Sequence record: HM035025
Length of the DNA: 64,000 nt
Source of the DNA: Shigella phage Shfl2
Direction: 5' to 3' (one strand)
The notes beneath the pieces were generated by a model. It was not told where the DNA came from. It ran no database searches and saw only the letters and a program-made list of their open reading frames with translations. Numbering within the stretch: position 1 is the first letter of the stretch; every line of letters starts with the position of its first letter. Shown in pieces: positions 1-62,350 of this stretch. Position numbers and translations under genes: made by a program.

Positions 1-1907
1 ACTTCATCTACACTGAAGTACTTCATCATAAAATCTAATTCAGGATACTTGATAATTTTATCAATATATCGTTTAGCTGAACTTGAATAACCTACATACT
101 TATCATAATCTACATCATCAAAAGCATCTACATATAAATCACGCAAAGCTTCAAAAATGCATTGGCACTGACCGAGTTCTTTTACCTTTTTCTGTAAAAG
201 CGGACGAATAACATAAAATTCATTAATGCCAATAAGATTAGCCATACGAATCAAAATATTCATAGATGGATGACAAAGAGATGTAGTACCATCCATAGAG
301 AAAATATCAGAACGATGCATATACGCTACATAACCAGTAATTTCATCTGCTTCTGATGTGAGCGTAAATAGTTCCTCTTTTTCCCATCGCCCATCTTTAA
401 TTTCAAATTTAAATGCTGTAGCAGCTTTAGGACGAGGAGCTTTACTTTTAACTACCTTTGGAATATAGCTTTTAACTAAAGCTTCAATTTCTGACAAATA
501 ATGAATGTTAACTTCATCATTTTCAAACATTGCCATAATATCAGGGAGTAAATCAATCTGTGATTCTACTTCCGGATTAATAAACAGAAGACGCTCATTG
601 TGATGAATATTTAAGGTGTTATTAAATTCACTATCATCTAATGCACGTGCTAATCCACGGACAATATTAACACGATTTTTAATATTATCAATAACGATAT
701 TAATTTTTGTTGTATTAATACCAAACAGACGATAACTTGATGCAATGGCTGAAGTTTCATGACTTTGCTTAATGCGCTTCAGTCGAGGGTCAAGATTTAC
801 TTCATACACAACCCCTGCATTACATAACTTACTATCAGGTTCAAACATACTCTGCATCTTCTTATATGACAGATTTTTAGTCGTGAATTTGACTGAATTA
901 CTAATCATATAATCTCGAGCAGAATACCCCATCTTCATCAATTCACGATATGTGTGACGAGGAGATGTAGATTCTTTAAATCGTTTTACATCTTCATTAA
1001 ATGCTTTCTCACTGAGTTCTTTAACTCGTTCAATGATATTTTTACGAGTGCGATCATCTAATGAAAGAGCTTCGCGTGATGGAGCAATATCCAGTGAACC
1101 CATTGGAAACTTAATGTAATTCACTTCATTGCGAATGCTTAACCAGTTGCGGTCTCTAATAACACCATCAATAGGATAAACAATACCACCATAGATAGCA
1201 TATAATCCACCACGATCAGGCCAGTATCTTTCTGGATTTACACCGTAATAATCATCAAAATCCGGAAAATAGTCAATTTCACGGTCAAGACCATTAATGA
1301 TAGCCAAATCTTTGAACGGTCGCATGATATAAGAAACTTCATAAGCAAAGTTTCTAAAGTCTTTTTCTTCAACTGGAACTACGATTTCAATACCAGTTTT
1401 ATCATCTGGACCCATTTCTTTTACGAATGTAGGTTTAATTTGTGGACCATCGCCATCCATGTAAGCTACATAACCACGAATTTCACCTTTATGATACGAA
1501 GTAATACTAAATGTATCAGTATAACTAAACGGAGATTTAGAACCTAAACCAAATCCGCCAATAAAGTCATTAGATTCGGCTTTAGATGAACTGAAGTATG
1601 AATTATACAGACCAGGAGAATTATCATCACCCTGAATATCAAAATCACTCATACCGGGACCAAAATCTCGGCAAACAAATCGTGGATCTAAACGTCCTGG
1701 AACTTGAATGATAAATTTTTCAGGATTTCCATTAAGAGCATGGGCATCAATCATGTTGGTAATCAATTCACGGACTACTGCGCGAATTTTGTTTGTATAC
1801 AAATCAGATGACAGAATTTTAAATACTTTAGGAGATGCTGTGATGCTAAATGCTTTTGATTTAGAACCATTACCAAGAATTGTTTCTTTTTCAGTGGTGA
1901 TAATCAT
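1..1907 (-). CDS. rIIA: rIIA protein, N-terminal part; C-terminus lies beyond window start
   Basis: Minus-strand translation from ATG at 1905-1907 reads [32 protein letters not shown]..., matching T4 rIIA N-terminus as recalled; GAGGA SD upstream; frame open to position 1; absent from ORF track because no in-window stop. Confidence 0.88.
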
Positions 1908-1917
1908 AATTTCCTCA

Positions 1918-2121
1918 TTAATTCATATTACGCTTAATAACTTCAGCAACTTCTAGCAGTTCATCTTTAGTTGCGGTGTCGGATTGAATTTTATCTCTAA
2001 TATCTTTAAAGCGGTTTTTAAATTCTTCGGCTTCTCCCATATCGAAAAAGCGTTGAATGATTCTATATTCTCGATGAACTGCTTTATCAAAAAGTTCTAA
2101 ATTTACTTTATATGATTTCAT
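1918..2121 (-). CDS. small conserved ORF upstream of rIIA (rIIA.1-like)
   Basis: 67 aa ORF at the position of T4 rIIA.1, between gene 39 and rIIA. Confidence 0.55.
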
Positions 2122-2146
2122 TTCAATATCCTCATTTGCCCAATTA

Positions 2147-2176
2147 ATTATACCACATCCTTGTGGTAAAGTAAAC
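2147..2176 (-). promoter_or_regulatory. T4-type early promoter (-35 GTTTAC / -10 TATAAT) reading into rIIA.1-rIIA
   Basis: Minus strand reads GTTTACT-17 nt-TATAAT; the spacer holds the palindrome CCACAAGGATGTGG; the -35 overlaps the gene 39 stop codon. Confidence 0.55.
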
Positions 2177-3996
2177 TACTGGCTCATCCATTCTTTACGA
2201 AGGTCAGCATTATCTCCCATGAGCATTTCAAAAAGCTCTTTCCAATTCTCAGGAAGTTTAACAACATCATATACTGGGTTTTGAATCATCTCACGATATT
2301 CAGATTTTTCCAAAGAGCCAAGTCCCTTAATATAACGGATGCTATGTTTAGGTAGAGCATCTTTGGCACTCTCATATTCAGCGACTGTATAAAACCATTC
2401 TTGTTTTTTACCGACCTGAGCGATGATTACAGGAGTTTTGACAAAGCGAATTCGTCCTTGCTCAAACAGTTCTGGCCAATTACTAAAAAACCCGAGCAGA
2501 GAAGGATAAATGCTTCCTAGACCATCATGGTCAGCATCAGTCATAATAGCAATATTATGATAATTCAAGTTTTCAGCTTTTTCACCGAGAACTAATCCAG
2601 TGATTGCGCAAATATCAAATAGTTCTTTGTTTTTAAGCATATCAGCATATGACATACCCCAACTGTTGAGAACTTTACCGCGCAATGGATAACCACCGTG
2701 AAGTTCTTTATCACGAACATCAATAAGATATCCGATAGCCGAATCACCCTCGGTTAAGAACAATGTAGTATCAGCATCTTTACCACAAAGATTCGCTTTG
2801 ATATGTTTATGAACCTTTGCCTTAGAAGCCTTTTTAGCTGCTTTAGTTTCTGCTGCTTTTTCTGCTGCCAATTTACGAGCTAATGCTGCTTCAATAATTG
2901 GCATCAAAATTGCTTCATTATTTAGAATAGCACGTGAAATCTTTTTAGCATCAAGTTGAATATGACTACGAATTTCACCAAAAGGAGAAGTAAGTCGTTC
3001 TTTAGTTTGAGAATCAAATCGCATGTTTTTCATATCACGGACAAACATAACGATAGTCAAACATTCTTTGACACGTGCTTTAGTTACATCAATTTTGAAC
3101 TTACGTTTGATTTGTGGAATAAGGTCTTCACAAATATCATCCATAACACAGTCAATGTGATGGCCACCATTCTTAGTGTGAATGTTATTCACATAAGTTA
3201 ATTGACGAAATCCATCTGGTGAACGACCAACCGCAATAGAACAATTTTCTTGTTCTTGAACAATAGCATGTTCATCATACTGTCGTGCATATTTCTTAAA
3301 ATTGCCCTGAACCTTTTTACCATTAAAGGTAAATTGAATATCAGGATAAACAACAGCAAGTGTCTGGAGACGATCTAGTGTAATGTCAAGATAAACTTGG
3401 GACAGCTCATTAGTTTCAAATGACATAAAATCAGGAATGAAAGTAACACGAGTTCCTTTCCATTTTCCTGGAATAGTTTCCCATGATTTATTTTCCATGC
3501 CATTTGAACAACGAACTACAATATTATTTTGACCGTCGCCAGTTTCACCAACAAACATCACAGAAAAAATGTTTGTCAAACTAGAACCAACACCATTCAT
3601 ACCGCCGGTGACACGTTCTTTATCATCACCGAAGTTACCACCTGCTTTTGGAATAGTCCACGCAGCAACAGGACCAGGAATTTCTTCACCGGTAGGTGTT
3701 TTAACCATCGCTTGTGGAATACCGCGACCGTTATCTTCAACTGTTACCTGATTATTTTTAATGTTAACATTAATTTTATTCGCGAATTTAAACTTAGTAC
3801 GAATACCTTCATCTACTGAGTTATCGATAATTTCATCAATAAGCTTAACAAGACCAGGTACATACTGAACACTTTCCCATTTACCAAACAGAAAGCGCTC
3901 ATGCATTTCATTAGCTGAAGAGCCAATGTACATGCCGCTACGCTTTTTGATATGTTCAATATCGCTCAGAATTTTAATTTCATTCTTAATCATCAC
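2176..3996 (-). CDS. 39: DNA topoisomerase II large (ATPase, GyrB-like) subunit, unsplit form
   Basis: 606 aa, starts MIKNEIKILSDIEHIKKRSGMYIGSS; GHKL ATPase motifs (VEDNGRGIP, GxxGxG); a single continuous ORF, unlike the T4 39 + 60 arrangement. Confidence 0.9.
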   Translation of the reverse strand: MMIKNEIKILSDIEHIKKRSGMYIGSSANEMHERFLFGKWESVQYVPGLVKLIDEIIDNSVDEGIRTKFKFANKINVNIKNNQVTVEDNGRGIPQAMVKTPTGEEIPGPVAAWTIPKAGGNFGDDKERVTGGMNGVGSSLTNIFSVMFVGETGDGQNNIVVRCSNGMENKSWETIPGKWKGTRVTFIPDFMSFETNELSQVYLDITLDRLQTLAVVYPDIQFTFNGKKVQGNFKKYARQYDEHAIVQEQENCSIAVGRSPDGFRQLTYVNNIHTKNGGHHIDCVMDDICEDLIPQIKRKFKIDVTKARVKECLTIVMFVRDMKNMRFDSQTKERLTSPFGEIRSHIQLDAKKISRAILNNEAILMPIIEAALARKLAAEKAAETKAAKKASKAKVHKHIKANLCGKDADTTLFLTEGDSAIGYLIDVRDKELHGGYPLRGKVLNSWGMSYADMLKNKELFDICAITGLVLGEKAENLNYHNIAIMTDADHDGLGSIYPSLLGFFSNWPELFEQGRIRFVKTPVIIAQVGKKQEWFYTVAEYESAKDALPKHSIRYIKGLGSLEKSEYREMIQNPVYDVVKLPENWKELFEMLMGDNADLRKEWMSQ

Positions 3997-8224: not shown

Positions 8225-8499
8225 TAAATTTTCCTCGCTAAATCGCGAATTTGACCTACAGTATAATCTTGGATATAAACTTTATTAATGGGCTCATCAA
8301 TAAATTTTGCCATAGATTCAATATCTTTTTGTATCTCTTCAAGACTGTATACTATCTTTAAAGCTTTTTCGCGAATAGTAACATTATCAGGTCCTGAATT
8401 TTCTTGAATGACAGCTTTAACATTTGCCATAAGAGATTTAAACTGATGCAAACTTAATTCAATCATTAATAACCGCCTTATAAAGATGGCTAATTTCAC
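8224..8499 (-). CDS. hypothetical protein (dexA.1-like)
   Basis: 91 aa; paralogous to the next ORF (LEEIQKDIESMAKF vs LEEIERDLIALEFF). Confidence 0.4.
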   Translation of the reverse strand: MKLAIFIRRLLMIELSLHQFKSLMANVKAVIQENSGPDNVTIREKALKIVYSLEEIQKDIESMAKFIDEPINKVYIQDYTVGQIRDLARKI

Positions 8500-8719
8500 C
8501 TAAAACATAATCACTGATTGTAACAGTTTTCACTTCACCGCAAAAGAATTCTAATGCAATCAAATCTCGTTCAATTTCTTCCAATTGAAGCATTAACTTG
8601 CCTGATTCAGTTTTCACATTTTTGCGATTTTTGCTATAAGCTATTTCATAAATTTCGCTTACTTTATCTTGAAGAAGATAAAACTGGTCTTTAGTTATTT
8701 CCACGAATAGCTTCCTCAA
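8459..8719 (-). CDS. hypothetical protein (dexA.2-like)
   Basis: 86 aa; tandem paralog of 8224..8499. Confidence 0.4.
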   Translation of the reverse strand: MRKLFVEITKDQFYLLQDKVSEIYEIAYSKNRKNVKTESGKLMLQLEEIERDLIALEFFCGEVKTVTISDYVLGEISHLYKAVIND

Positions 8720-8951
8720 ATTTAATTAGTAATTTACAGACACTTTCATCTAGTGTAATTACCGTATCTGTATTACTGTGATATGATTGTTTTTCAATTC
8801 GTTTAATTGCTAATATAGTATCACTTATAAGATAAAGCTTATGAAGGAGCTCAGCTCCTGTTACCATAACATCGAGATTATCTTGCTTATTAGTATGCTT
8901 CCTTATACCATCTATTAGACGATTTAAATATTTTGAATTGATGTTAATCAT
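8691..8951 (-). CDS. hypothetical protein
   Basis: 86 aa ORF. Confidence 0.4.
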   Translation of the reverse strand: MININSKYLNRLIDGIRKHTNKQDNLDVMVTGAELLHKLYLISDTILAIKRIEKQSYHSNTDTVITLDESVCKLLIKFEEAIRGNN

Positions 8952-8957
8952 ATAGCC

Positions 8958-10277
8958 TCACACATAAAACACATCATAACGACCACGTGTTACACCAACA
9001 TAAAGAAGCTGCTGAGCTAGTTCAGCATCTGCATAATGAATGCAAGGTGTATAGATGAAAGCACGGTCTACAGACATACCCTGAGCTTTATGGAATGTTG
9101 ATGCAGGAAGTGCTTTCACTTTACTAAACTGTGATTTAGCATCCCAAAAATCACTCCACGGAGCTTTTCCGCCTTTGTTCCAATTTTTATAAGTTTCTGC
9201 CGTTTTACCTAAAAATAGGTTAAACTTATATAGCTCTTCATCAGATGAAATTATTTTAATCTTTTCACGATAATATTCATCATCACCATAAGTTTCTACT
9301 GTTAAATCCCAATGACGAATTAGGTATTCTCCAGAAACACCACGAGCTTTAACAAACGTCGATGTATACTCTGCTTCTATAATACGAACTAATTGTCCGT
9401 TATTAAAAATAATTTCTGACACAGGCTTTCCATCAATTTTATATGTTTTAATTAATGGTTCCTGCATTACAATAATTTCACCAACAATAAAATCTTTATC
9501 AGTTTCAAAAATCTTTTTGCGAATAATGCTATTTAACTTGTCAACGGATTTATTCGTAAATGCCATTACACGATTTTCAAACAAATCATCTAGCGATTTG
9601 ACGATTGAAAAATAATTTACCATAAAATCGCGTAAAGCGGTATCACCAGTAAATCCACGTACTCCATGCCCGTCAACAATTTTATCATAAATCCACTTAC
9701 CATTACGAACATCAGTAGCTACATCAATAATAGGAGCATTACTGCGTTTAACTTCAGTGAGTTCACACTGATAAAAATCTTTATGTGTAAAGAATGGACT
9801 GATATAAGCAGTGTTTTCTCCTGGGTCAACAGGTCTAATTTGCTTATTATCACCTATTCCAATTATAGTACACCACGGCGGGATAGTTGAAAGCAGAATT
9901 TTAAATAGCTTTCTATCATACATTGACACTTCGTCGCAGATTAATACCCTGCATTTAGCCAAATCTGGTACTTCTTTTTGCTCAAAAAGAACGTTTTCTT
10001 CGTATGTTACTGGGTTAATTTTAAGAATACTGTGAATAGTACTCGCTTCTTTCCCTGATAGTTTTGAAAGAATCTTTTTAGCTGCATGAGTAGGAGCTGC
10101 TAAAATAATGCCAGTTTCGCCCGTAGATATTAAGGCTTCAATGATGAACTTAGTAAGAGTAGTCTTACCAGTACCAGCAGGTCCATTAATAGTTACATGA
10201 TGTTTCTTTTCTTTGATAGCCCTCATAACGATGTTAAAGGCATTTTTCTGGCCTTCGGTCAAATCATCAAATGTCAT
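8958..10277 (-). CDS. dda: Dda DNA helicase (SF1B)
   Basis: 439 aa; Walker A GPAGTGKTT; starts MTFDDLTEGQKNAFNIV as T4 Dda. Confidence 0.92.
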   Translation of the reverse strand: MTFDDLTEGQKNAFNIVMRAIKEKKHHVTINGPAGTGKTTLTKFIIEALISTGETGIILAAPTHAAKKILSKLSGKEASTIHSILKINPVTYEENVLFEQKEVPDLAKCRVLICDEVSMYDRKLFKILLSTIPPWCTIIGIGDNKQIRPVDPGENTAYISPFFTHKDFYQCELTEVKRSNAPIIDVATDVRNGKWIYDKIVDGHGVRGFTGDTALRDFMVNYFSIVKSLDDLFENRVMAFTNKSVDKLNSIIRKKIFETDKDFIVGEIIVMQEPLIKTYKIDGKPVSEIIFNNGQLVRIIEAEYTSTFVKARGVSGEYLIRHWDLTVETYGDDEYYREKIKIISSDEELYKFNLFLGKTAETYKNWNKGGKAPWSDFWDAKSQFSKVKALPASTFHKAQGMSVDRAFIYTPCIHYADAELAQQLLYVGVTRGRYDVFYV

Positions 10278-11449: not shown

Positions 11450-12052
11450 TTATAGATTAAATCCTTCAAAATCAAGAGTATAGATAGTGTATGTTGAATA
11501 CTTTTTATACTCGTATCTATCCGCAATTCTAAATACACTTCCAGCTGGTATCATTACTTCTTGTTCATCTGAAACTAATTCCATATTACGATAGCGATGG
11601 CTATCCGGAAATTTAAAACTCGGGCTATATTCTTTACAACGTAAAGCTTTTATAGCATACTCCTGGAAATTAAACACCATAGGAGCTTTGAATTCAAAAA
11701 TAACTTGTGTGTTGTATTCTAATCCAGAAGCAAAATGTAGAGCTATATTTTTATCATATGAAGCTGATACTACTTTATCAAATGTAATAATATCAATTCC
11801 TTGATTTAACACCTGCTTAGTCTCAACTGGAACACCTCTCCAAAGAGGTTTATCGTTTGGTTCCAAACGAGATTTGATTATTTCATTTAACCAAGAATGA
11901 TCGTCTGGCTTATTAGTAATACAATGAATTAAAAGTTCAATTTCGGATAAATTAAATCCTTCAGAAAGTAATTCTTCACGAATAGAAGCACGCACCGATG
12001 CATCCATTGATTTGATTTTAAAATCTTTTAATTGCATTGCTGAATATTTCAT
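11450..12052 (-). CDS. modA: ADP-ribosyltransferase ModA
   Basis: 200 aa; R...STS...E-x-E style ART motifs (RGV, SASYD, EQEVMIPAGS). Confidence 0.8.
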   Translation of the reverse strand: MKYSAMQLKDFKIKSMDASVRASIREELLSEGFNLSEIELLIHCITNKPDDHSWLNEIIKSRLEPNDKPLWRGVPVETKQVLNQGIDIITFDKVVSASYDKNIALHFASGLEYNTQVIFEFKAPMVFNFQEYAIKALRCKEYSPSFKFPDSHRYRNMELVSDEQEVMIPAGSVFRIADRYEYKKYSTYTIYTLDFEGFNL

Positions 12053-16127: not shown

Positions 16128-16328
16128 ATGGTACAAAAATTAATGGCACTTGTTAATGCCATCAAAGGTAATAAAAAACGTATAGCTTTTACTATTTCTG
16201 CTATGGTAGGAATTTTACTCTGGAACTTTATTTTATCACCTGTTGCAATTGCACATGGTATTAATATTCCAGTAGTTACTCTTGATACATTTGTAGATTT
16301 AGCATTTGCTTTAGTTGGGTTAATTTAA
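16128..16328 (+). CDS. plus-strand small two-helix membrane protein
   Basis: 66 aa; AAGGAGG SD 4 nt before ATG; two hydrophobic segments; lies where no minus-strand ORF exists between 56 and 61. Confidence 0.4.
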   Translation: MVQKLMALVNAIKGNKKRIAFTISAMVGILLWNFILSPVAIAHGINIPVVTLDTFVDLAFALVGLI

Positions 16329-17353
16329 ATCTTAGCATATTTAGATAGCCGCATTTTAGCCATTAACCCCTGCGCAATATTATTTTTCATATATTCCATA
16401 ATCTGTTCAGGGGTTGCACCTTCCTTTCTAATCATATCATTGACATCTTTTGATTTCCAGGGAGATTTATCCCAAAACATAACCCTTTCTCCTGCATCAA
16501 CTAATTTAGTCATTCGCTTGATAGTGTCAGGGTGACGAGGTTCATTATCTAAGACCCACACTCGTCTATCTTTAAATGGAACAACTTCTAGGTCTAATTG
16601 ACCACCCGTAATAGCTATACCATTTTCAATAAAAAGCGAATCTATAGGTCCTTCTAGAACATATACATCACCATCTTTAACTCGTTCAACACCGTAAATT
16701 TTTGTTGCCTCAGGATAAGCTTTGATGGTGATATACTTTTGTGGAGCATCTTTCTTTAATGCACGTCCTTGAAAAGACTCAGCTTTTCCATTTGCATTAT
16801 AAATTGGAATAACAAGACGAGGCTCAGAAATTTCCTTTTTGTATGTTCCCGGTGCTATGCTATTAACTAATTTAGGCCATTCGGTTGTAAACCAAAGATA
16901 TTTCCATTTATCCTTTGGAATACAACGAGCTTTTACATATTTTATAATTGGATGGTCTTCCGCCAGTTTATCTAATCTAACACATGACGGAAGAGATTTA
17001 ATTATTTTCTTCTCAGGTTGTTTAGGAAGTTCTTTAGGTTTTTCTACTGGACGACTTTTACCTTTTTCTTTTCTTATTTCAAAGATATACTCACGATATA
17101 AATCAGGTTCAAACTCCTTTAAATATATTCCGATTGGTGCGTGATAGTTACAGTTATAACAATGAATATTTCCTTCATTATTATCACCATAATACCATCC
17201 ACGGGCTTTATTTTGGTCGGTTTTTGAATCTCCACAAACAGGACATCTAAACCGCAATTTAAAAGTTGAACTATTATTTACTTGTGTGAATTTAGGTAAA
17301 TGAGCTAATGCACGATATGCAAACTCATTATCAATCCAAGGTATTGATGACAT
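16325..17353 (-). CDS. 61: DNA primase
   Basis: 342 aa; zinc ribbon CPVCGDS...CYNC and TOPRIM-like C-terminal region; size matches T4 gp61. Confidence 0.92.
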   Translation of the reverse strand: MSSIPWIDNEFAYRALAHLPKFTQVNNSSTFKLRFRCPVCGDSKTDQNKARGWYYGDNNEGNIHCYNCNYHAPIGIYLKEFEPDLYREYIFEIRKEKGKSRPVEKPKELPKQPEKKIIKSLPSCVRLDKLAEDHPIIKYVKARCIPKDKWKYLWFTTEWPKLVNSIAPGTYKKEISEPRLVIPIYNANGKAESFQGRALKKDAPQKYITIKAYPEATKIYGVERVKDGDVYVLEGPIDSLFIENGIAITGGQLDLEVVPFKDRRVWVLDNEPRHPDTIKRMTKLVDAGERVMFWDKSPWKSKDVNDMIRKEGATPEQIMEYMKNNIAQGLMAKMRLSKYAKI

Positions 17354-17355
17354 TT

Positions 17356-17520
17356 TTACTCTTCTTTTTCTTTAGATTCCTCTTTTTTCTTTTTAGGAAT
17401 CTGTTCAGGACCTTTATTTACTATAGCACCTGACGTTGTTCCAGTGGAGATATTTTCAGGATTACCACCTGAATCTCCAGCTACCATATCTTCTTTGATA
17501 AATTCTTTATATGTTTTCAT
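17356..17520 (-). CDS. small acidic/lysine-rich peptide with capsid-targeting-sequence-like N-terminus
   Basis: Hand-translated MKTYKEFIKEDMVAGDSGGNPENISTGTTSGAIVNKGPEQIPKKKKEESKEKEE; GAGG SD; first 10 residues resemble the T4 internal-protein CTS MKTYQEFIAE. Confidence 0.4.
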   Translation of the reverse strand: MKTYKEFIKEDMVAGDSGGNPENISTGTTSGAIVNKGPEQIPKKKKEESKEKEE

Positions 17521-17521
17521 A

Positions 17522-17878
17522 TTAACCTCTATTCATAAAAGCATTAAAAATTTGGTCATCAATTGATGGAACAGCAACCTTTTCTACATCATTTAACAAA
17601 TCATTAATTTCATCAGATAGCATAACGCATGTACCTTTATTTCCTGTAATTGTTACTGCGCAATTACGAACGTTTTCTTTATCAAATTTTAGGTTAATAT
17701 TTTCGTAGTGAAAATCCTTTAATGCCGAATATATTTTTAAAATGAAATTGTCTTTTACTACAATAAAACCGACTTCACTATTAAAACGCGGCTCATGAAA
17801 ACTGTAATAAACCTTTTCATCTATAAAATCGTATGAAATTTTTTCCATTTTTAAATATGAAAATTCAGAACTATACAT
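17522..17878 (-). CDS. hypothetical protein (61.1-like)
   Basis: 118 aa; C-terminus ...SIDDQIFNAFMNRG shared with the next ORF. Confidence 0.45.
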   Translation of the reverse strand: MYSSEFSYLKMEKISYDFIDEKVYYSFHEPRFNSEVGFIVVKDNFILKIYSALKDFHYENINLKFDKENVRNCAVTITGNKGTCVMLSDEINDLLNDVEKVAVPSIDDQIFNAFMNRG

Positions 17879-17879
17879 A

Positions 17880-18506
17880 CTAACCTTTATTCATAAAAGC
17901 ATTAAAAATTTGGTCATCAATAGAAACATTTACTTTAGACTGTTTTTCTGATGGTAATTCATATCCACATATTACAATTTTGTGATCAATATCAAAATAC
18001 ACAGAAGCAATATGATTAATGATGTTTTCAGTAAAGTCTAAATCAACATCAATATCTTTTTGACCACAGCCCAAAGGATAAATAATGCGAGTAATTCGAT
18101 TATCTTTAACAAATATTCCACCGACATACTCTGTGCTGCGTTTAAAGTCTACACGCCGACGAAATGAAAAATATTCAGGCTCTCTATGAGCTCGGCTCAT
18201 AGGACACAACGAGTAACTAGAATAAGAGATGTCAAATCCTACGCCTTCAATATGAGCCAAAGTGTCATGATTAAACCAATTATAATCGTACGCCAAATCC
18301 ATTAGATTATAATATGTAAAAGGCACCGGATTAACATCATTAGTCACAAGCATGTAATTAGCAACTGCTATAATTTCATTGTTTTTAACGAATACAAACC
18401 GTGATTGATGCGAATGACCTGGACCCGCGTTTTCACGATTAATGATATAACACTGGGCACCTTTATATTTGTATGTATCTTTGCACTTGTGCATTTGATA
18501 GAGCAT
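17880..18506 (-). CDS. hypothetical protein (61.2-like)
   Basis: 208 aa; C-terminus ...SIDDQIFNAFMNKG. Confidence 0.45.
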   Translation of the reverse strand: MLYQMHKCKDTYKYKGAQCYIINRENAGPGHSHQSRFVFVKNNEIIAVANYMLVTNDVNPVPFTYYNLMDLAYDYNWFNHDTLAHIEGVGFDISYSSYSLCPMSRAHREPEYFSFRRRVDFKRSTEYVGGIFVKDNRITRIIYPLGCGQKDIDVDLDFTENIINHIASVYFDIDHKIVICGYELPSEKQSKVNVSIDDQIFNAFMNKG

Positions 18507-18799
18507 TATTCACCTACCACTTCAGCGATGATATTTTTATTATTAAAGTTTTTATCACAATACAGAACGTAATTGTATTGCATTACACCACCGGACTTAA
18601 GCTGTTTTTGTACTTCAGCTTTCATTTCAGGACGATCACGCTCAACGATATTCATAATATCCGCTTCAATTTGAGTTTCAACTTCAGTCTGATCTGCAGT
18701 CATAGACCATTCACACAAATCTTTATCATATCCTGCCATAGCAGGCTGAGCAGCACAAAAAGCTAAAGCAAAAATTGCAGCAAAAACAAATTTTTTCAT
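18506..18799 (-). CDS. sp: Spackle periplasmic protein (superinfection exclusion / lysozyme inhibitor)
   Basis: 97 aa; signal peptide MKKFVFAAIFALAFCAAQPAMA followed by GYDKDLCEWSMTADQ..., matching T4 Sp (61.3) as recalled. Confidence 0.82.
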   Translation of the reverse strand: MKKFVFAAIFALAFCAAQPAMAGYDKDLCEWSMTADQTEVETQIEADIMNIVERDRPEMKAEVQKQLKSGGVMQYNYVLYCDKNFNNKNIIAEVVGE

Positions 18800-18856
18800 G
18801 ATAATCTCCTCAGTAGTTTATGTTTATATAGTATCTCAATTTCTAACAAAAGTAAA

Positions 18857-19111
18857 CTATTTTATTTCCTCAAGTTCGTTAATCAATAAAAGTTCTCTGA
18901 CGCTAAAAACAAAGAAAAATGTGTTCCCATCAACCAGAGCATGACCGCTAATAGAACACCCTCTGCGGAATTTAGAAACTTCACAATCTAGAACTGTAAA
19001 GGGTTTTAATCCTATGACTTTAGCTGTGCGTCTATTCAGTTCACAACCACTTGCGAATTTTTCCAAATCTTCTTCTGATTTAAACTGATATTCTCTATTA
19101 ACTAGCATCAT
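18857..19111 (-). CDS. hypothetical protein in the sp-dmd island
   Basis: 84 aa ORF with its own early promoter (gtaaac at 19159-19164). Confidence 0.45.
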   Translation of the reverse strand: MMLVNREYQFKSEEDLEKFASGCELNRRTAKVIGLKPFTVLDCEVSKFRRGCSISGHALVDGNTFFFVFSVRELLLINELEEIK

Positions 19112-19174
19112 TTTCTTTTCTCCGCGATTAGCTGATAGAATTACTATAACACAACTCTATCAGCTTGTAAACTA

Positions 19175-19417
19175 CTATTTTACTAGCATCAATAACTGTT
19201 TCTCTAATTTGACGATTTTACGAAAGTATCTTTTGCATTGGCGAATCTGTCGCTTCGTAGGGCGCACAGCAAACTTAATAAATTCCACTCGACCAAATGG
19301 AGGACTTTCTTCTGCTGGAATATCTAACACCAATTCCCACGTATCTGCAACAAGTGCTTTGAATTGAGTATTTTTCCTGACATTATACGGAGTAGGTTTA
19401 AATAAAACAATATGCAT
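19175..19417 (-). CDS. hypothetical small basic protein (61.4/tifA-like position)
   Basis: Start set at MHIVLFKPTPY (GAGGA SD), 80 aa; immediately downstream of dmd. Confidence 0.45.
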   Translation of the reverse strand: MHIVLFKPTPYNVRKNTQFKALVADTWELVLDIPAEESPPFGRVEFIKFAVRPTKRQIRQCKRYFRKIVKLEKQLLMLVK

Positions 19418-19418
19418 A

Positions 19419-19601
19419 TTATCCTCGACAATCAACTTCACATACTTTCTTGTCATCAATGAAAGCTTTAACTAGCGCTTTATTAACTTCAGCATATTGA
19501 GTAGTAGCCCATTGAACGTCATCTTTCATCATTGTGATTTCTTTAGTAAACATGCTTTCATTCTTAAACCACCCCATAAAAACTACCTTTACCAATTCCA
19601 T
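19419..19601 (-). CDS. dmd: Dmd antitoxin (discriminator of mRNA degradation)
   Basis: 60 aa; MELVKVVFMGWFKNESMFTKEITMMKDDVQW...; size and position of T4 61.5. Confidence 0.78.
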   Translation of the reverse strand: MELVKVVFMGWFKNESMFTKEITMMKDDVQWATTQYAEVNKALVKAFIDDKKVCEVDCRG

Positions 19602-19659: not shown

Positions 19660-21087
19660 CTAAAATTTTAATTCATTCGCTAAAGCATCTAACTGAGCTC
19701 GAGTGGATTCGTTTCTTTGATAGCGATTCTGCTCAGCCTGAATCTGTTGTGAACCTGCTACTTCGTTCACTTCTGTTGGAGTAGAATCTTGTTCAATTTC
19801 TACCCATTTTTGATTTCCTTTTTGAACACCCATCAAAAACTTATTCCACTTATTCTTATCACCATATCGTGATTTGATTTGCTTAATGAGTTGTTGTTCA
19901 GCAGCTGCTAGCTCCTCGGTTTCAATGACCGCAAGCATAAAATCAGCTGTTGCTGGAAGACCAGCAGATTCTGCAATATCGCTCATGTTAACATCGGAAG
20001 AGTCCCAAGCTTGTTTACCGACCTGTGCTGCAGTCCAAAGAACAGTTTCGGTTTCAACAGCAAGAGCACGCAATTCCTCTGCAATAGCTTTAACAGTTGT
20101 GTAACTATTTTCTGAATAAACTCTAATGCGGCAAGATTTACAAATACCCAGATAGTCGACAATAATGATTGTTGGAACAAAATTCTTTTTGAGCTTCAAT
20201 TCGTTTAAAAGTGATCGAAATGTATTAGCATCTGCTCCACCAGTAGGATACTGTTTAACGATTAAACGACCAAGGGTAGATTTCTCACGCCATTTTTCCA
20301 TTTTTCCTTTATACTCAGCGTAAGAAATATGCCCATCATCAATGTCATCAAGAGAAACATCAAGCATATTAGCATCAATACGTTTAGCACAGACTTCTTC
20401 TGCCATTTCCATGGAAATGTAAAGAACATTATGTCCGAGCTGTAAATAATCTGCTGCTAATGAACAAAGTCCTAATGATTTACCAACGTTAACACCAGCC
20501 ATTAAAACGTTCAATGTTCCAGTTTCAGCTCCGCCTTTAGTAATTTTATTTAGAATTTTGAGTCTAAATGGAACCTTACGAGCTTTATTCATATAAGATA
20601 GCCAACGTGCTTCGTAGTCATCCATCCAATCATGACCAACATAGCTATCAAATGAAATTGATAATGCTTGGCGCATGATGTCAGGAATAGCACCAACATC
20701 CGGCATTTTCTTATTTCGTTTTTCTGGAGGAAGCTCAGCATTAGTTTGAATTTCGATTATTTTAGACGTAGCATTAAACATCGCCCTTTGCTGAACATAT
20801 TTTTCTGTTTCTTTTACTAACCAGCTGTGGTCTTCTGGAGAATCAGCCAGTTTTGAAATAAGTGTTTTTACACCAGAATATTCTGTTTCAGTAAATGAAC
20901 TATTTTCTAATGCAACATTTAACGCATTAATAGATGGAACGCTATGGTACTCATTAACATGAGATTTAATTAATTTGAATGTATTTTTAGCTGGACCACT
21001 TTCAAAATATTCTGAATCCATATATGGCCAAACTTTTGAAAAATAAGCTTGATCAAATATAAGATGAGAAAGAATAATTTCTACCAC
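19660..21087 (-). CDS. 41: replicative DNA helicase (DnaB family)
   Basis: 475 aa; Walker A GVNVGKS; size matches T4 gp41. Confidence 0.95.
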   Translation of the reverse strand: MVEIILSHLIFDQAYFSKVWPYMDSEYFESGPAKNTFKLIKSHVNEYHSVPSINALNVALENSSFTETEYSGVKTLISKLADSPEDHSWLVKETEKYVQQRAMFNATSKIIEIQTNAELPPEKRNKKMPDVGAIPDIMRQALSISFDSYVGHDWMDDYEARWLSYMNKARKVPFRLKILNKITKGGAETGTLNVLMAGVNVGKSLGLCSLAADYLQLGHNVLYISMEMAEEVCAKRIDANMLDVSLDDIDDGHISYAEYKGKMEKWREKSTLGRLIVKQYPTGGADANTFRSLLNELKLKKNFVPTIIIVDYLGICKSCRIRVYSENSYTTVKAIAEELRALAVETETVLWTAAQVGKQAWDSSDVNMSDIAESAGLPATADFMLAVIETEELAAAEQQLIKQIKSRYGDKNKWNKFLMGVQKGNQKWVEIEQDSTPTEVNEVAGSQQIQAEQNRYQRNESTRAQLDALANELKF

Positions 21088-61189: not shown

Positions 61190-61663
61190 TTATTTGAACG
61201 ATTTAACGTACTGAATAGAACCTTTACTATTCACGAAAGCGATTTTACCATTTTTATTATACATGGTAGCAGTACGCTGATAGCCGTAAGTTTGCTTACC
61301 AGATTGATAACCAACTAATGCAAAATTATCTTCACCCATTTTATTCTGTTTAGCGCGAATGCGTTCATGACCATGTGCCATAAGAACCTTAGCATCACCA
61401 GTTGCAATGGATCGACGAGTTTTTTCATCTTCAACTGTATTAACAAAGTCGTCAAATGAATCAAATTTAGCGTGAGATTTATTATACAGTTTTCCATCTA
61501 CTGCATAATTATATCCCTGTACATCCATCTCAACTTCTGTACCATCATCCAATACAGCAGTGATTTTCTGTCCTTTTTTAAATTTCAAAAGATCAGTAAA
61601 AGATTCAGCAATAATTTGAGAATTAATAGCTGCTTCAGTAATAAATTCTTGATATGTTTTCAT
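61190..61663 (-). CDS. internal protein (IP) with capsid targeting sequence
   Basis: 157 aa; starts MKTYQEFITEA, i.e. the T4 IP CTS (MKTYQEFIAE) with a gp21-type cleavage context; body unlike T4 IPII as recalled. Confidence 0.6.
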   Translation of the reverse strand: MKTYQEFITEAAINSQIIAESFTDLLKFKKGQKITAVLDDGTEVEMDVQGYNYAVDGKLYNKSHAKFDSFDDFVNTVEDEKTRRSIATGDAKVLMAHGHERIRAKQNKMGEDNFALVGYQSGKQTYGYQRTATMYNKNGKIAFVNSKGSIQYVKSFK

Positions 61664-61689
61664 GTGTTTCCTTTAAATGTAAATAGTTT

Positions 61690-61770
61690 TATTCTTTAAG
61701 TTTGGGACAATTCGCACGCATGAATTGTCCGTTTCTATATTTATCTATTACCGGGTTCGAACTCGGCTTT
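61690..61770 (-). repeat. repeated leader element with 9 bp hairpin, copy 2
   Basis: GGACAATTC-gcacgcat-GAATTGTCC hairpin and conserved flanks upstream of the ipII-like start. Confidence 0.6.
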
Positions 61771-61771
61771 A

Positions 61772-62350
61772 TTAAGAATTACCACGGGCTGCATTAGCAA
61801 CGGCATACGCGTACTGAACATTAGCGTCTTTAAACGTACCTTTAGAGGTATCTATTTCTGCCTTAAAGCCGCCTTTAGTCATAACATCGGCAAATTCTTT
61901 ACGGAAAGCCATTGCATCAAGACCTTTCCATGATGATTTATGCTTGGCGAATTCAAGACCAGCGTAGTTGACAGCCTTAGCTAATTTATTATCAATAACC
62001 CATTTACCAGCTTTAGGCACAAACTTCGGGCCTTTCTGTTTAGAGAACAGTTTTAAATTCCAGCGGCGAAGGTCACTGTCGGCTTTAACAAAAGCTGCGT
62101 CTAAGTTACTAGCAACAACATCTTCAATATGAGCAAATTTAAGTCCGTCAACTTCAATATTTAGATCGGTACGCCAGCGAAGTCCTTCCCAAGCGAAGGC
62201 TTTAAAATCGGAAGCTTTTGTAGCTAAGTATCGTTCAATAGGGGCTGTTTTAGGGTCAAAGCCGTTTCCTCGGTAAGTCCACTCGTCTTTATTAATGCCT
62301 TTGGCCTTTTCAACAGAAGCTTCAGCGATAAATTCTTTATACGTTTTCAT
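61772..62350 (-). CDS. ipIII: internal protein III-like
   Basis: 192 aa; starts MKTYKEFIAEA (CTS); size matches T4 IPIII. Confidence 0.7.
   Translation of the reverse strand: MKTYKEFIAEASVEKAKGINKDEWTYRGNGFDPKTAPIERYLATKASDFKAFAWEGLRWRTDLNIEVDGLKFAHIEDVVASNLDAAFVKADSDLRRWNLKLFSKQKGPKFVPKAGKWVIDNKLAKAVNYAGLEFAKHKSSWKGLDAMAFRKEFADVMTKGGFKAEIDTSKGTFKDANVQYAYAVANAARGNS

Follow-up and report, generated by a model that had tools for sequence, protein, structure and literature searches.

The DNA analyzed here, referred to as the window, is a 64,000-nucleotide (nt) stretch of Shigella phage Shfl2 (record HM035025), and it represents T4-type phage DNA of the genus Tequatrovirus. Immediately upstream of the primase gene 61, its minus strand carries a short open reading frame (ORF) of 54 codons, the subject of this study, which we identify as gene 61.1. 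The 600 bases around this ORF are 100% identical to phage vB_EcoM-UFV13 (UFV13 below) and 95-99% identical to about 490 further records. The gene, its parts and its leader are laid out as follows:

17356..17520, minus strand: coding sequence of gene 61.1, 54 amino acids (aa) plus stop, assigned from the ORF list, the T4 position and identity, and the profile phrog_1823.
17526..17529, minus strand: Shine-Dalgarno sequence GAGG, by direct reading of the sequence.
17491..17520, minus strand: codons 1-10, MKTYKEFIKE, a propeptide resembling a capsid-targeting sequence (CTS), with a predicted site for the prohead protease gp21, I-K-E, at its end; 9/10 residues shared with the CTS of the phage's own internal protein (IP), and aligned with residues 59-65 of gp23, the major capsid protein.
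17407..17490, minus strand: codons 11-38, DMVAGDSGGNPENISTGTTSGAIVNKGP, a core resembling the N-fist of gp23 and homologous to gp23 66-93, based on PDB and genome profile searches and a ratio of non-synonymous to synonymous divergence (dN/dS) of 0.1-0.2.
17359..17406, minus strand: codons 39-54, EQIPKKKKEESKEKEE, a Lys-rich tail with a run of A, frameshifted in T6-type relatives, based on family alignments.
17530..17537, minus strand: TATGAATA, a putative element with one mismatch to the T4 late-promoter consensus, at the site where other lineages have a perfect TATAAATA.

Translation of the ORF from its ATG gives MKTYKEFIKEDMVAGDSGGNPENISTGTTSGAIVNKGPEQIPKKKKEESKEKEE. The Shine-Dalgarno sequence is located 5 nt 5' of this ATG, and as merely 4 in-frame codons lie between the preceding stop and the ATG, there is no other start for the gene. 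The ORF is T4 gene 61.1 (NC_000866 18966..19130, NP_049649), with the same map position and 52/54 residues identical; the T4 protein, MKTFKEFIKEDMVAGDSGGNPENISIGTTSGAVVNKGPEQIPKKKKEESKEKEE, is named "gp61.1 hypothetical protein" in its record. The phrog_1823 profile matched residues 1-54 of 54 (E=8.9e-34), and phrog_2086, comprising longer relatives, matched with E=2.9e-16. These matches identify the 54-residue protein as a member of the gp61.1 family (phrog_1823, with its long relatives in phrog_2086), for which no Pfam family was found for either the short or the long forms. A preliminary description of the locus had noted a good Shine-Dalgarno sequence and the start MKTYKEFIKE, and both are borne out by the sequence and its translation. 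However, it placed the ORF between 61.1 and the primase gene, giving the name 61.1 to a 118-aa ORF that is actually a partial paralog of 61.2 (AdfA). As the 54-aa ORF matches T4 61.1 both in position and in sequence, these labels were off by one gene.

The protein resembles a short stretch of gp23. When residues 1-122 of T4 gp23 were compared with phrog_1823, gp23 59-101 was paired with profile positions 4-46 (E=4e-10), and the long-form profile phrog_2086 was matched with E=5e-8. A profile of ten 61.1 proteins, searched against 177,635 distinct PDB sequences, retrieved T4 gp23 chains only (6uzc, E=3e-5, gp23 59-94), while a profile of 22 diverse long forms retrieved gp23 58-99 (E=4.8e-10) and one other, unrelated weak match (E=0.2). 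Among 3049 stop-to-stop ORFs of a near-complete T4-type genome, a family hidden Markov model built without gp23 found only 61.1 (1e-26) and gp23 (1e-12, approximately residues 63-100), with no third N-fist paralog in that genome. The alignment between 61.1 and gp23 is ungapped, with 16 identities over 61.1 positions 7-38. By these four independent searches, residues 4-46 of 61.1 are homologous to gp23 59-101.

In the HMMER alignment, I8-K9-E10|D11 of 61.1 falls on L63-T64-E65|A66 of gp23. The prohead protease removes 65 N-terminal residues from gp23, so E65|A66 is a real gp21 cleavage site, and a review describes gp21 as a protease that cleaves behind Glu and depends on little else. Thus, the I-x-E protease context that the preliminary description had pointed out is present (residues 8-10 of the 54-aa ORF) and has a genuine counterpart in gp23. 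After expansion of the capsid, gp23 66-91 becomes the N-fist, which contacts four neighboring subunits and contributes to the site where Soc binds; in the unexpanded prohead, gp23 66-105 is disordered, located inside the shell, and probably touches the scaffolding core. This behavior of gp23 66-105 fits the role proposed below for 61.1. The head-length mutations A66D, A94V and G97S map to the same region, and the N-fists of gp23 are disordered beside the portal. Going by the alignment, 61.1 is a small-scale paralog of two parts of gp23, the maturation junction and the N-fist, to which a Lys-rich tail is added. With 54 aa (vs 521 aa in gp23) and homology limited to gp23 59-101, it lacks the HK97-fold body (A, P and I domains) and is no capsid subunit. 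The string GDSGG, found in the family, resembles a serine-protease motif, and a serine protease was therefore considered; this was rejected because other family members have A, H, C or G at the position of the Ser.

The N-terminal decapeptide of 61.1 was compared with those of the internal-protein genes in the window:

61772..62350, minus strand: internal-protein gene beginning with the CTS MKTYKEFIAE, used as the comparison sequence.
61190..61663, minus strand: second internal-protein-like gene, beginning with the CTS MKTYQEFITE.

MKTYKEFIKE and MKTYKEFIAE share 9/10 residues, including positions 4, 7, 8 and 10, in agreement with the near-identity to the IP CTS claimed in the preliminary description. 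As summarized in PMC9026906 for the work of Mullaney and Black (1996), positions 4 and 7 of the CTS are the main determinants of targeting and positions 8 and 10 those of processing, and the summary describes the 10-residue CTS as sufficient to bring foreign proteins into T4 heads. In 61.1, all four of these reported determinants are in place (Y4, F7, I8 and E10). As in the CTS family, position 4 is aromatic and position 7 is Phe; as in gp21 sites, position 8 is aliphatic and position 10 is Glu. A loose CTS pattern, run on the 966 ATG-started ORF candidates of the window, matched only four, namely the two IP genes, 61.1 and the gene 61.4 ORF. The last of these (19175..19459, minus strand), read from the ATG at 19456, begins MTRKYVKLIVED (MTRKYVKLIVE) and is probably a chance match. 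The first 30 coding nucleotides of 61.1 and the ip gene are identical at 26/30 positions, and the leaders upstream differ. Recent recombination with an ip gene is unsupported, given the unlike leaders.

The preliminary description had also stressed that the ORF lies far from the ip locus. This is true of the window, but the distance is less telling than it appeared, because CTS-bearing ORFs are scattered in UFV13, at several spots 4-10 kb apart, and because gene 40, a head gene whose product is annotated as head vertex assembly chaperone, adjoins gene 41 in the same early cluster as 61.1. The 60-110 kb segment of UFV13 contains at least seven ORFs with CTS-like starts (MKTY.EF..E) over about 10 kb, at the following segment positions:

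1709..2284, 2299..2613, 2801..2935, 3414..3695, 8262..8828, 8947..9420 and 11696..11983: ORFs of UFV13 (segment L051) with CTS-like starts.

The match between the window and UFV13 ends at about 62 kb, within the plastic internal-protein region (61190..62350).

Homologs of 61.1 were collected in steps of increasing breadth: a first search yielded 11 close relatives, and wider sets came from IMG/VR loci, an exhaustive HMMER search and a profile search. By tblastn, homologs are present in 1437 phage records, with hosts including Escherichia, Klebsiella, Acinetobacter, Aeromonas and Vibrio; the HMMER search of 1.8 billion representative proteins gave 50 diverged cluster representatives; and the ORF is intact in 47 IMG/VR metagenomic loci. 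When a 27-codon core was compared with 16 diverged loci, non-synonymous divergence was 0.08-0.25 with synonymous sites at or near saturation, giving dN/dS of approximately 0.1-0.2. Gene 61.1 is therefore a real, strongly conserved gene of non-cyanophage T4-like phages under strong purifying selection, and it had been listed among the conserved T4-like ORFs without an assigned function (Nolan et al. 2006). The preliminary description had named loss of the ORF in relatives as the outcome that would count against it, and what we found, retention across T4-like phages, is clearly the opposite. These data also bear on the possibility that the ORF is an annotation artifact or a decaying, functionless fragment of gene 23. 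Such a possibility could be raised since the ORF is very short and lacks a Pfam family, and since in T4 its protein has escaped detection and its knock-down gave no phenotype (see below). However, a remnant would be expected neither to show the dN/dS values and saturated synonymous sites seen here nor to stay intact in so many phage records, metagenomic loci and diverged representatives, and the gene possesses its own Shine-Dalgarno sequence and, in many lineages, its own late promoter. The selection and conservation data effectively refute this explanation, and we assign it next to no probability.

Two architectures exist in the family. The short forms, like the gene in the window, have 50-70 aa, while the long forms (phrog_2086) have 130-250 aa and carry a conserved N-terminal domain (N-domain) of about 100 residues ahead of the junction and core that the short forms also have, as in ...EALPLFE|DMVAGDSGG.... 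When 94 family members were anchored on the core motif MVAGD, 80 had Glu as the second residue ahead of the motif and 85 had a hydrophobic residue as the fourth, so that hydrophobic-x-E, the motif type of gp21 sites, is kept before the core in about 85-90% of members. An N-terminus of the form aromatic-x-x-aromatic occurs in 21 of 31 unique short-form junctions vs 4 of 82 long forms, and diverged metagenomic short forms also start in a CTS-like manner (MKIKTFDEFVE|A and MIKFKDFVE|S). Because the CTS-like peptide stands where the N-domain is absent, the two are suggested to serve one and the same job. A search for the N-domain elsewhere in a Tequatrovirus genome was negative (best E about 1); having no counterpart there, it was lost rather than relocated.

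An AlphaFold2 model of one long form had a mean predicted local distance difference test (pLDDT) score of 76, with a confident helical N-domain (>93 over residues 21-70) and low scores for the N-fist-like part, as might be expected if this segment needs a partner in order to fold. Foldseek comparison of this model with the PDB returned no match, and a BFVD structure search with the long form returned uncharacterized phage proteins only, some of them larger (672, 913 and 396 aa). Neither by structure nor by sequence did the N-domain reveal a relative whose function is known. Some long forms of 245-251 aa (the gene at 1210..1947 of locus L042, and the set P0026, P0044 and P0049) have an extra conserved C-terminal domain of about 100 residues past the Lys-rich stretch; in P0049 this domain is present and the N-domain absent.

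The Lys-rich (Lys/Arg-rich) tail is universal in the family, although the most conserved part is the N-fist-like core, not the tail. In the window, the predicted mature peptide, D11 to E54, has 44 residues, a mass of 4.6 kDa and an isoelectric point (pI) of about 5.0, whereas the predicted mature part of a long-form relative has a pI of 10.3 and the tail is strongly basic in other lineages. Thus, the acidic and lysine-rich cargo of about 44 aa proposed in the preliminary description is accurate for this phage (pI about 5) and not for the family, in which the pI elsewhere is about 10. In the T6-type relatives P0002 and P0004 (62 aa), a +1 frameshift is located in the A-rich run at 17380..17394 (minus strand; CCT AAA AAG AAA AAA), and the resulting tail, ...KKKKRNLKKKKSKNVINTLD, is different, still Lys-rich, and runs over the primase start codon. 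The +1 frame of the window sequence gives this 62-aa variant.

Starting from what was observed directly, namely the identity of the gene, its relationship to gp23, the conserved motif, the purifying selection and the fixed gene order, we propose, as the best-supported reading, that 61.1 is directed to the core of the prohead, is cleaved there by gp21 behind Glu10, and mimics the mature N-terminus of gp23. We judge the chances of this proposal to be evenly balanced. Targeting, cleavage and retention are inferred because the CTS is published as sufficient and because the homology puts the junction of 61.1 on a genuine gp21 site. The protein would consist of three parts: the pre-cleavage peptide MKTYKEFIKE, a 28-residue copy of the N-fist, and the Lys-rich tail. 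According to this model: the decapeptide would dock 61.1 on the prohead scaffolding core, at the site where the internal proteins dock and, plausibly, the pre-cleavage segment of gp23 as well; gp21 would then cut after Glu10; the freed 44-residue peptide would imitate the mature gp23 N-terminus; and its Lys-rich tail may retain it in the head, or it may take the binding place of a gp23 N-terminus on the gp23 lattice or on the scaffold. In other lineages, the domain of about 100 residues would take the place of the decapeptide and act as a long propeptide. How the CTS places proteins in the T4 scaffolding core is itself still called mysterious (PMC9958956).

The preliminary description had suggested that the peptide is delivered into the capsid for injection. 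The evidence from the sequence for targeting and processing is stronger than it had reported, which partly supports its interpretation, although it had missed the homology to the gp23 N-fist and misnamed the neighboring genes. Injection into the host is possible, with nothing in the data pointing to it specifically. The predicted cut can be recognized by mass: cleavage after E10 would yield the semi-tryptic peptide DMVAGDSGGNPENIS(T/I)GTTSGA(I/V)VNK, and the uncut protein the fully tryptic EDMVAGD...NK, differing by one Glu (129 Da), according to our calculations.

Several lines of evidence weigh against a role of 61.1 inside the head. In T4, the 61.1 transcript is classed as early, and gp61.1 was undetected in a time-resolved infection proteome (both in PMC9697503, Table S2). 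Knock-down of T4 61.1 by CRISPRi-ART had no fitness effect (score -0.84, "Not Fit"; PMC11879866, supplement). The protein is unmentioned in a T4 head mass-spectrometry paper and its supplements, and the terms "extra density", "unassigned" and "unidentified" are absent from the published T4 capsid papers searched. The residue following the predicted cut is Asp (D11), while it is Ala in gp23. The window and T4-type phages in general carry TATGAATA (17530..17537, minus strand) instead of a perfect late promoter, and a fixed position between helicase and primase genes is unexpected for a head gene. Some of these objections can be put into perspective. The transcripts of ipII and ipIII are likewise classed as early in the same table, and since the head gene 40 is in the same cluster beside gene 41, the early-cluster location of 61.1 is not a strong objection. 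The null knock-down is consistent with an accessory role and argues against an essential role in assembly.

Outside of the T4-type phages, the promoter evidence points in the other direction. In 17 of the 47 IMG/VR loci, a perfect late-promoter element, TATAAATA, is located 21-35 nt 5' of the 61.1 ATG, in at least 6 sequence contexts:

L009-L020, L040-L042, L045 and L047: loci with a perfect TATAAATA before 61.1.

These 17 account for 17/18 of all plus-strand occurrences of TATAAATA in 147 kb, with an expectation of about 0.008 per locus. The presence of this element implies that 61.1, and probably the primase gene as well, would be transcribed late in RB69-type and other lineages. In T4-type phages, TATGAATA at the corresponding site doubles as coding sequence for the C-terminus of the AdfA-like gene inserted there.

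The early T4 transcript, together with the lack of a perfect late promoter in T4-type phages, would be more easily understood if 61.1 were a cytoplasmic mimic of the gp23 N-terminus that is never packaged, serving as a decoy or regulator for the gp21 protease, for a chaperone, or for a capsid-sensing host defense. In the T-even phages, 61.1 stands at the end of a counter-defense cluster consisting of dmd, 61.4, sp and 61.2 (61.2 encoding AdfA, Anti-DarT factor A); a null fitness effect in a laboratory host is typical of accessory and counter-defense genes; and the homology is confined to a surface-exposed, recognizable part of gp23. However, the late promoters found in several lineages do not fit this explanation, and neither does the position of 61.1, which is fixed across Escherichia, Klebsiella, Acinetobacter, Aeromonas, Vibrio and Pseudomonas phages while the adjacent counter-defense genes come and go. 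Counter-defense genes are patchy and lineage-specific in their presence; 61.1 was found in 47/47 loci, and dmd, sp and adfA in some only. A decoy would also have no obvious use for the conserved hydrophobic-x-E junction and the CTS-like N-terminus. With respect to host sensing, the Gol region of gp23, which Lit senses (residues about 93-122), lies mostly beyond the stretch homologous to 61.1. We regard a purely cytoplasmic mimic as unlikely.

The surroundings of 61.1 are constant on one side and variable on the other. Its two nearest neighbors in the window are as follows:

16325..17353, minus strand: primase gene 61, the conserved downstream neighbor, starting 2 nt past the 61.1 stop.
17522..17878, minus strand: ORF for a 118-aa partial AdfA (61.2) paralog, matching Pfam PF23813 (E=1.9e-8) over its C-terminal half and phrog_4122.

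The minus-strand order in the window is 41 (19660..21087), dmd, 61.4, sp, 61.2/adfA, the 118-aa paralog, 61.1 and primase 61. In the IMG/VR loci, the primase gene is downstream of 61.1 in 47/47, beginning 30-100 nt past the stop in 42; in L016, L021, L046 and L048, 0.5-0.7 kb separate the 61.1 stop from the primase gene. In several loci, the helicase gene 41 is directly upstream of 61.1, giving the core order 41 - 61.1 - 61, which is also present in Aeromonas phage ZPAH1 and in KVP40-like Vibrio phages.

Such a neighborhood raises the question of whether 61.1 might be an accessory factor of the primosome, assisting gp41 (helicase) and gp61 (primase), for instance by binding nucleic acid with its Lys-rich tail, in which case the likeness to gp23 would be an evolutionary leftover. 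The close coupling to the primase gene (in all loci downstream, and in the window with only 2 nt between stop and start), the early T4 transcript, the universal Lys/Arg-rich tail and the fact that the T4 primase gene likewise scores "Not Fit" on knock-down (PMC11879866, supplement) could all be understood in this way. Yet the tail is less well conserved than the N-fist-like core, and a capsid protein is the sole homolog that could be detected, with the alignment falling precisely on its protease site. Moreover, the spacing to the primase gene varies, and in Escherichia phage FL20 (Krischvirus) other genes have been inserted between the two. A fusion to helicase or primase was also looked for: the ZPAH1 gene labeled "primase-helicase subunit" turned out to be a separate 149-aa gene, and no such fusion is present among the 120 relatives listed. 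The "primase-helicase subunit" annotations themselves look like errors carried over from the neighboring gene. Taken together, a primosome function for 61.1 seems to us rather unlikely.

Returning to the head, a more far-reaching version of the proposed role would be that 61.1 is a free-standing "trans N-fist", an overlooked core microprotein of capsid assembly. In this case, it would enter the prohead by the docking interaction of gp23's own pre-cleavage segment and be cut by gp21, and the N-fist copy would then fill lattice or scaffold sites where a gp23 N-terminus is missing or has to be displaced, such as those beside the portal. Phage FL20 (165-kb genome, of which 92 kb was scanned, from 2.6 to 92 kb) is consistent with this notion, because its 61.1 homolog, MIGFKQFVEENKLKE|DMTAGD..., has retained an N-terminus resembling a CTS; of the ORFs with a recognizable ribosome-binding site in the 92 kb scanned, it is the only one that begins in this way. 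The loose aromatic-x-x-aromatic pattern occurred there in about 30 other ORF candidates, none of which is CTS-like. A search of FL20 for IP CTSs that co-vary with the 61.1 N-terminus found no CTS gene family in the 92 kb scanned. If the trans N-fist idea is true, the CTS of the internal proteins would mimic the end of the gp23 propeptide, and 61.1 would be the evolutionary link. We consider it unlikely in this strong form.

Comparison with known systems places 61.1 between the internal proteins and gp23. Like 61.1, T4 IPI, IPII and IPIII begin with a decapeptide of the MKTYQEFIAE type, with key positions 4, 7, 8 and 10 and a hydrophobic-x-E gp21 site at its end, and they are small, Lys-rich and non-essential in the laboratory, the ipII and ipIII transcripts being early. 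However, the internal proteins are hypervariable and encoded in plastic loci, whereas 61.1 is conserved and fixed beside the primase gene; its predicted mature part copies a capsid-protein segment, as that of no internal protein does; and in many lineages, unlike the internal proteins, it carries a domain of about 100 residues in place of the CTS. Packaging and injection have been demonstrated for the internal proteins, whereas for 61.1 both are hypothetical. With gp23, 61.1 shares the cleavage motif at the same aligned position as Glu65|Ala66, at the end of the propeptide and ahead of the N-fist/N-arm (66-105), but gp23 runs on into the N-arm where 61.1 has its Lys-rich tail, and gp23 is encoded in the late head cluster whereas 61.1 is in the early replication cluster. 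The long forms recall the head and ejection proteins of SPN3US and phiKZ, which have long propeptides cut by a gp21-like protease. Head proteins of SPN3US have propeptides of more than 100 residues that are cut after Glu, and the long forms of 61.1 are alike in having about 100 residues, hydrophobic-x-E and then the core. The giant-phage proteins nevertheless have no similarity in sequence or fold to the long forms, their motif is S/A-x-E, and processing of the long forms is inferred.

In the literature covered (Miller et al. 2003 not included), gp61.1 or 61.1 was found in gene lists only, with its CTS-like N-terminus, its N-fist homology and its two architectures undiscussed. What was known is the annotation of the gene and occasional, automated capsid names; what is new is a protein with a CTS-like N-terminus and a predicted gp21 site that is conserved family-wide and that, unlike the internal proteins, would carry a capsid segment as its cargo. 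Three elements meet in the sequence of 61.1: the internal-protein CTS, the gp21 site of gp23 together with the propeptide end before it, and the N-fist. A testable idea follows: the CTS may imitate the docking and cleavage segment of the capsid protein itself, with 61.1 as a natural 54-residue substrate. Gene 61.1 is among the few genes without a function that are conserved across non-cyanophage T4-like phages (Nolan et al. 2006). If its peptide is a true head component, the textbook parts list of the virion is incomplete; if it is not, an early-made mimic of the capsid protein would be interesting in itself.

The names under which 61.1 homologs appear in records, "putative head morphogenesis protein", "major capsid (domain-containing) protein" and "DNA primase-helicase subunit", need correction. 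The label "major capsid protein" is wrong for a protein of 54 residues, although it reflects the same similarity to gp23. GenBank product names for this region are frequently incorrect or displaced by one gene; for example, the T2 record (AP018813) calls helicase 41 "major capsid protein".

Upstream of 61.1, gene 61.2 (17880..18506, minus strand) matches Pfam PF23813, Anti-DarT factor A, with E=5e-136. The 118-aa ORF (17522..17878, minus strand) is a tandem partial paralog of 61.2, and both end in ...IDDQIFNAFMN[RK]G; after each of these AdfA-like genes, the junction TATGAATA[GA]AGGTTA precedes the next ATG. In T4, 61.2 stands alone at this place, while relatives have either AdfA-like gene or both. 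The entire interval from 41 to 61.1 (window 17522..19601, minus strand) is a hot spot for insertions, containing dmd, 61.4, sp and adfA in T-even phages. Other T4-like phages (loci L004-L050) have different genes or none in this interval, with 41 abutting 61.1 in L044 and L049. Downstream, two small ORFs and an HNH endonuclease gene lie between the 61.1 homolog and the primase gene in FL20. Finally, a 66-aa hydrophobic ORF at 16128..16328 of the window (plus strand) is convergent with the 3' end of the primase gene, overlapping it by 4 nt; a coding sequence is annotated there in the T2 record, under an unreliable name.

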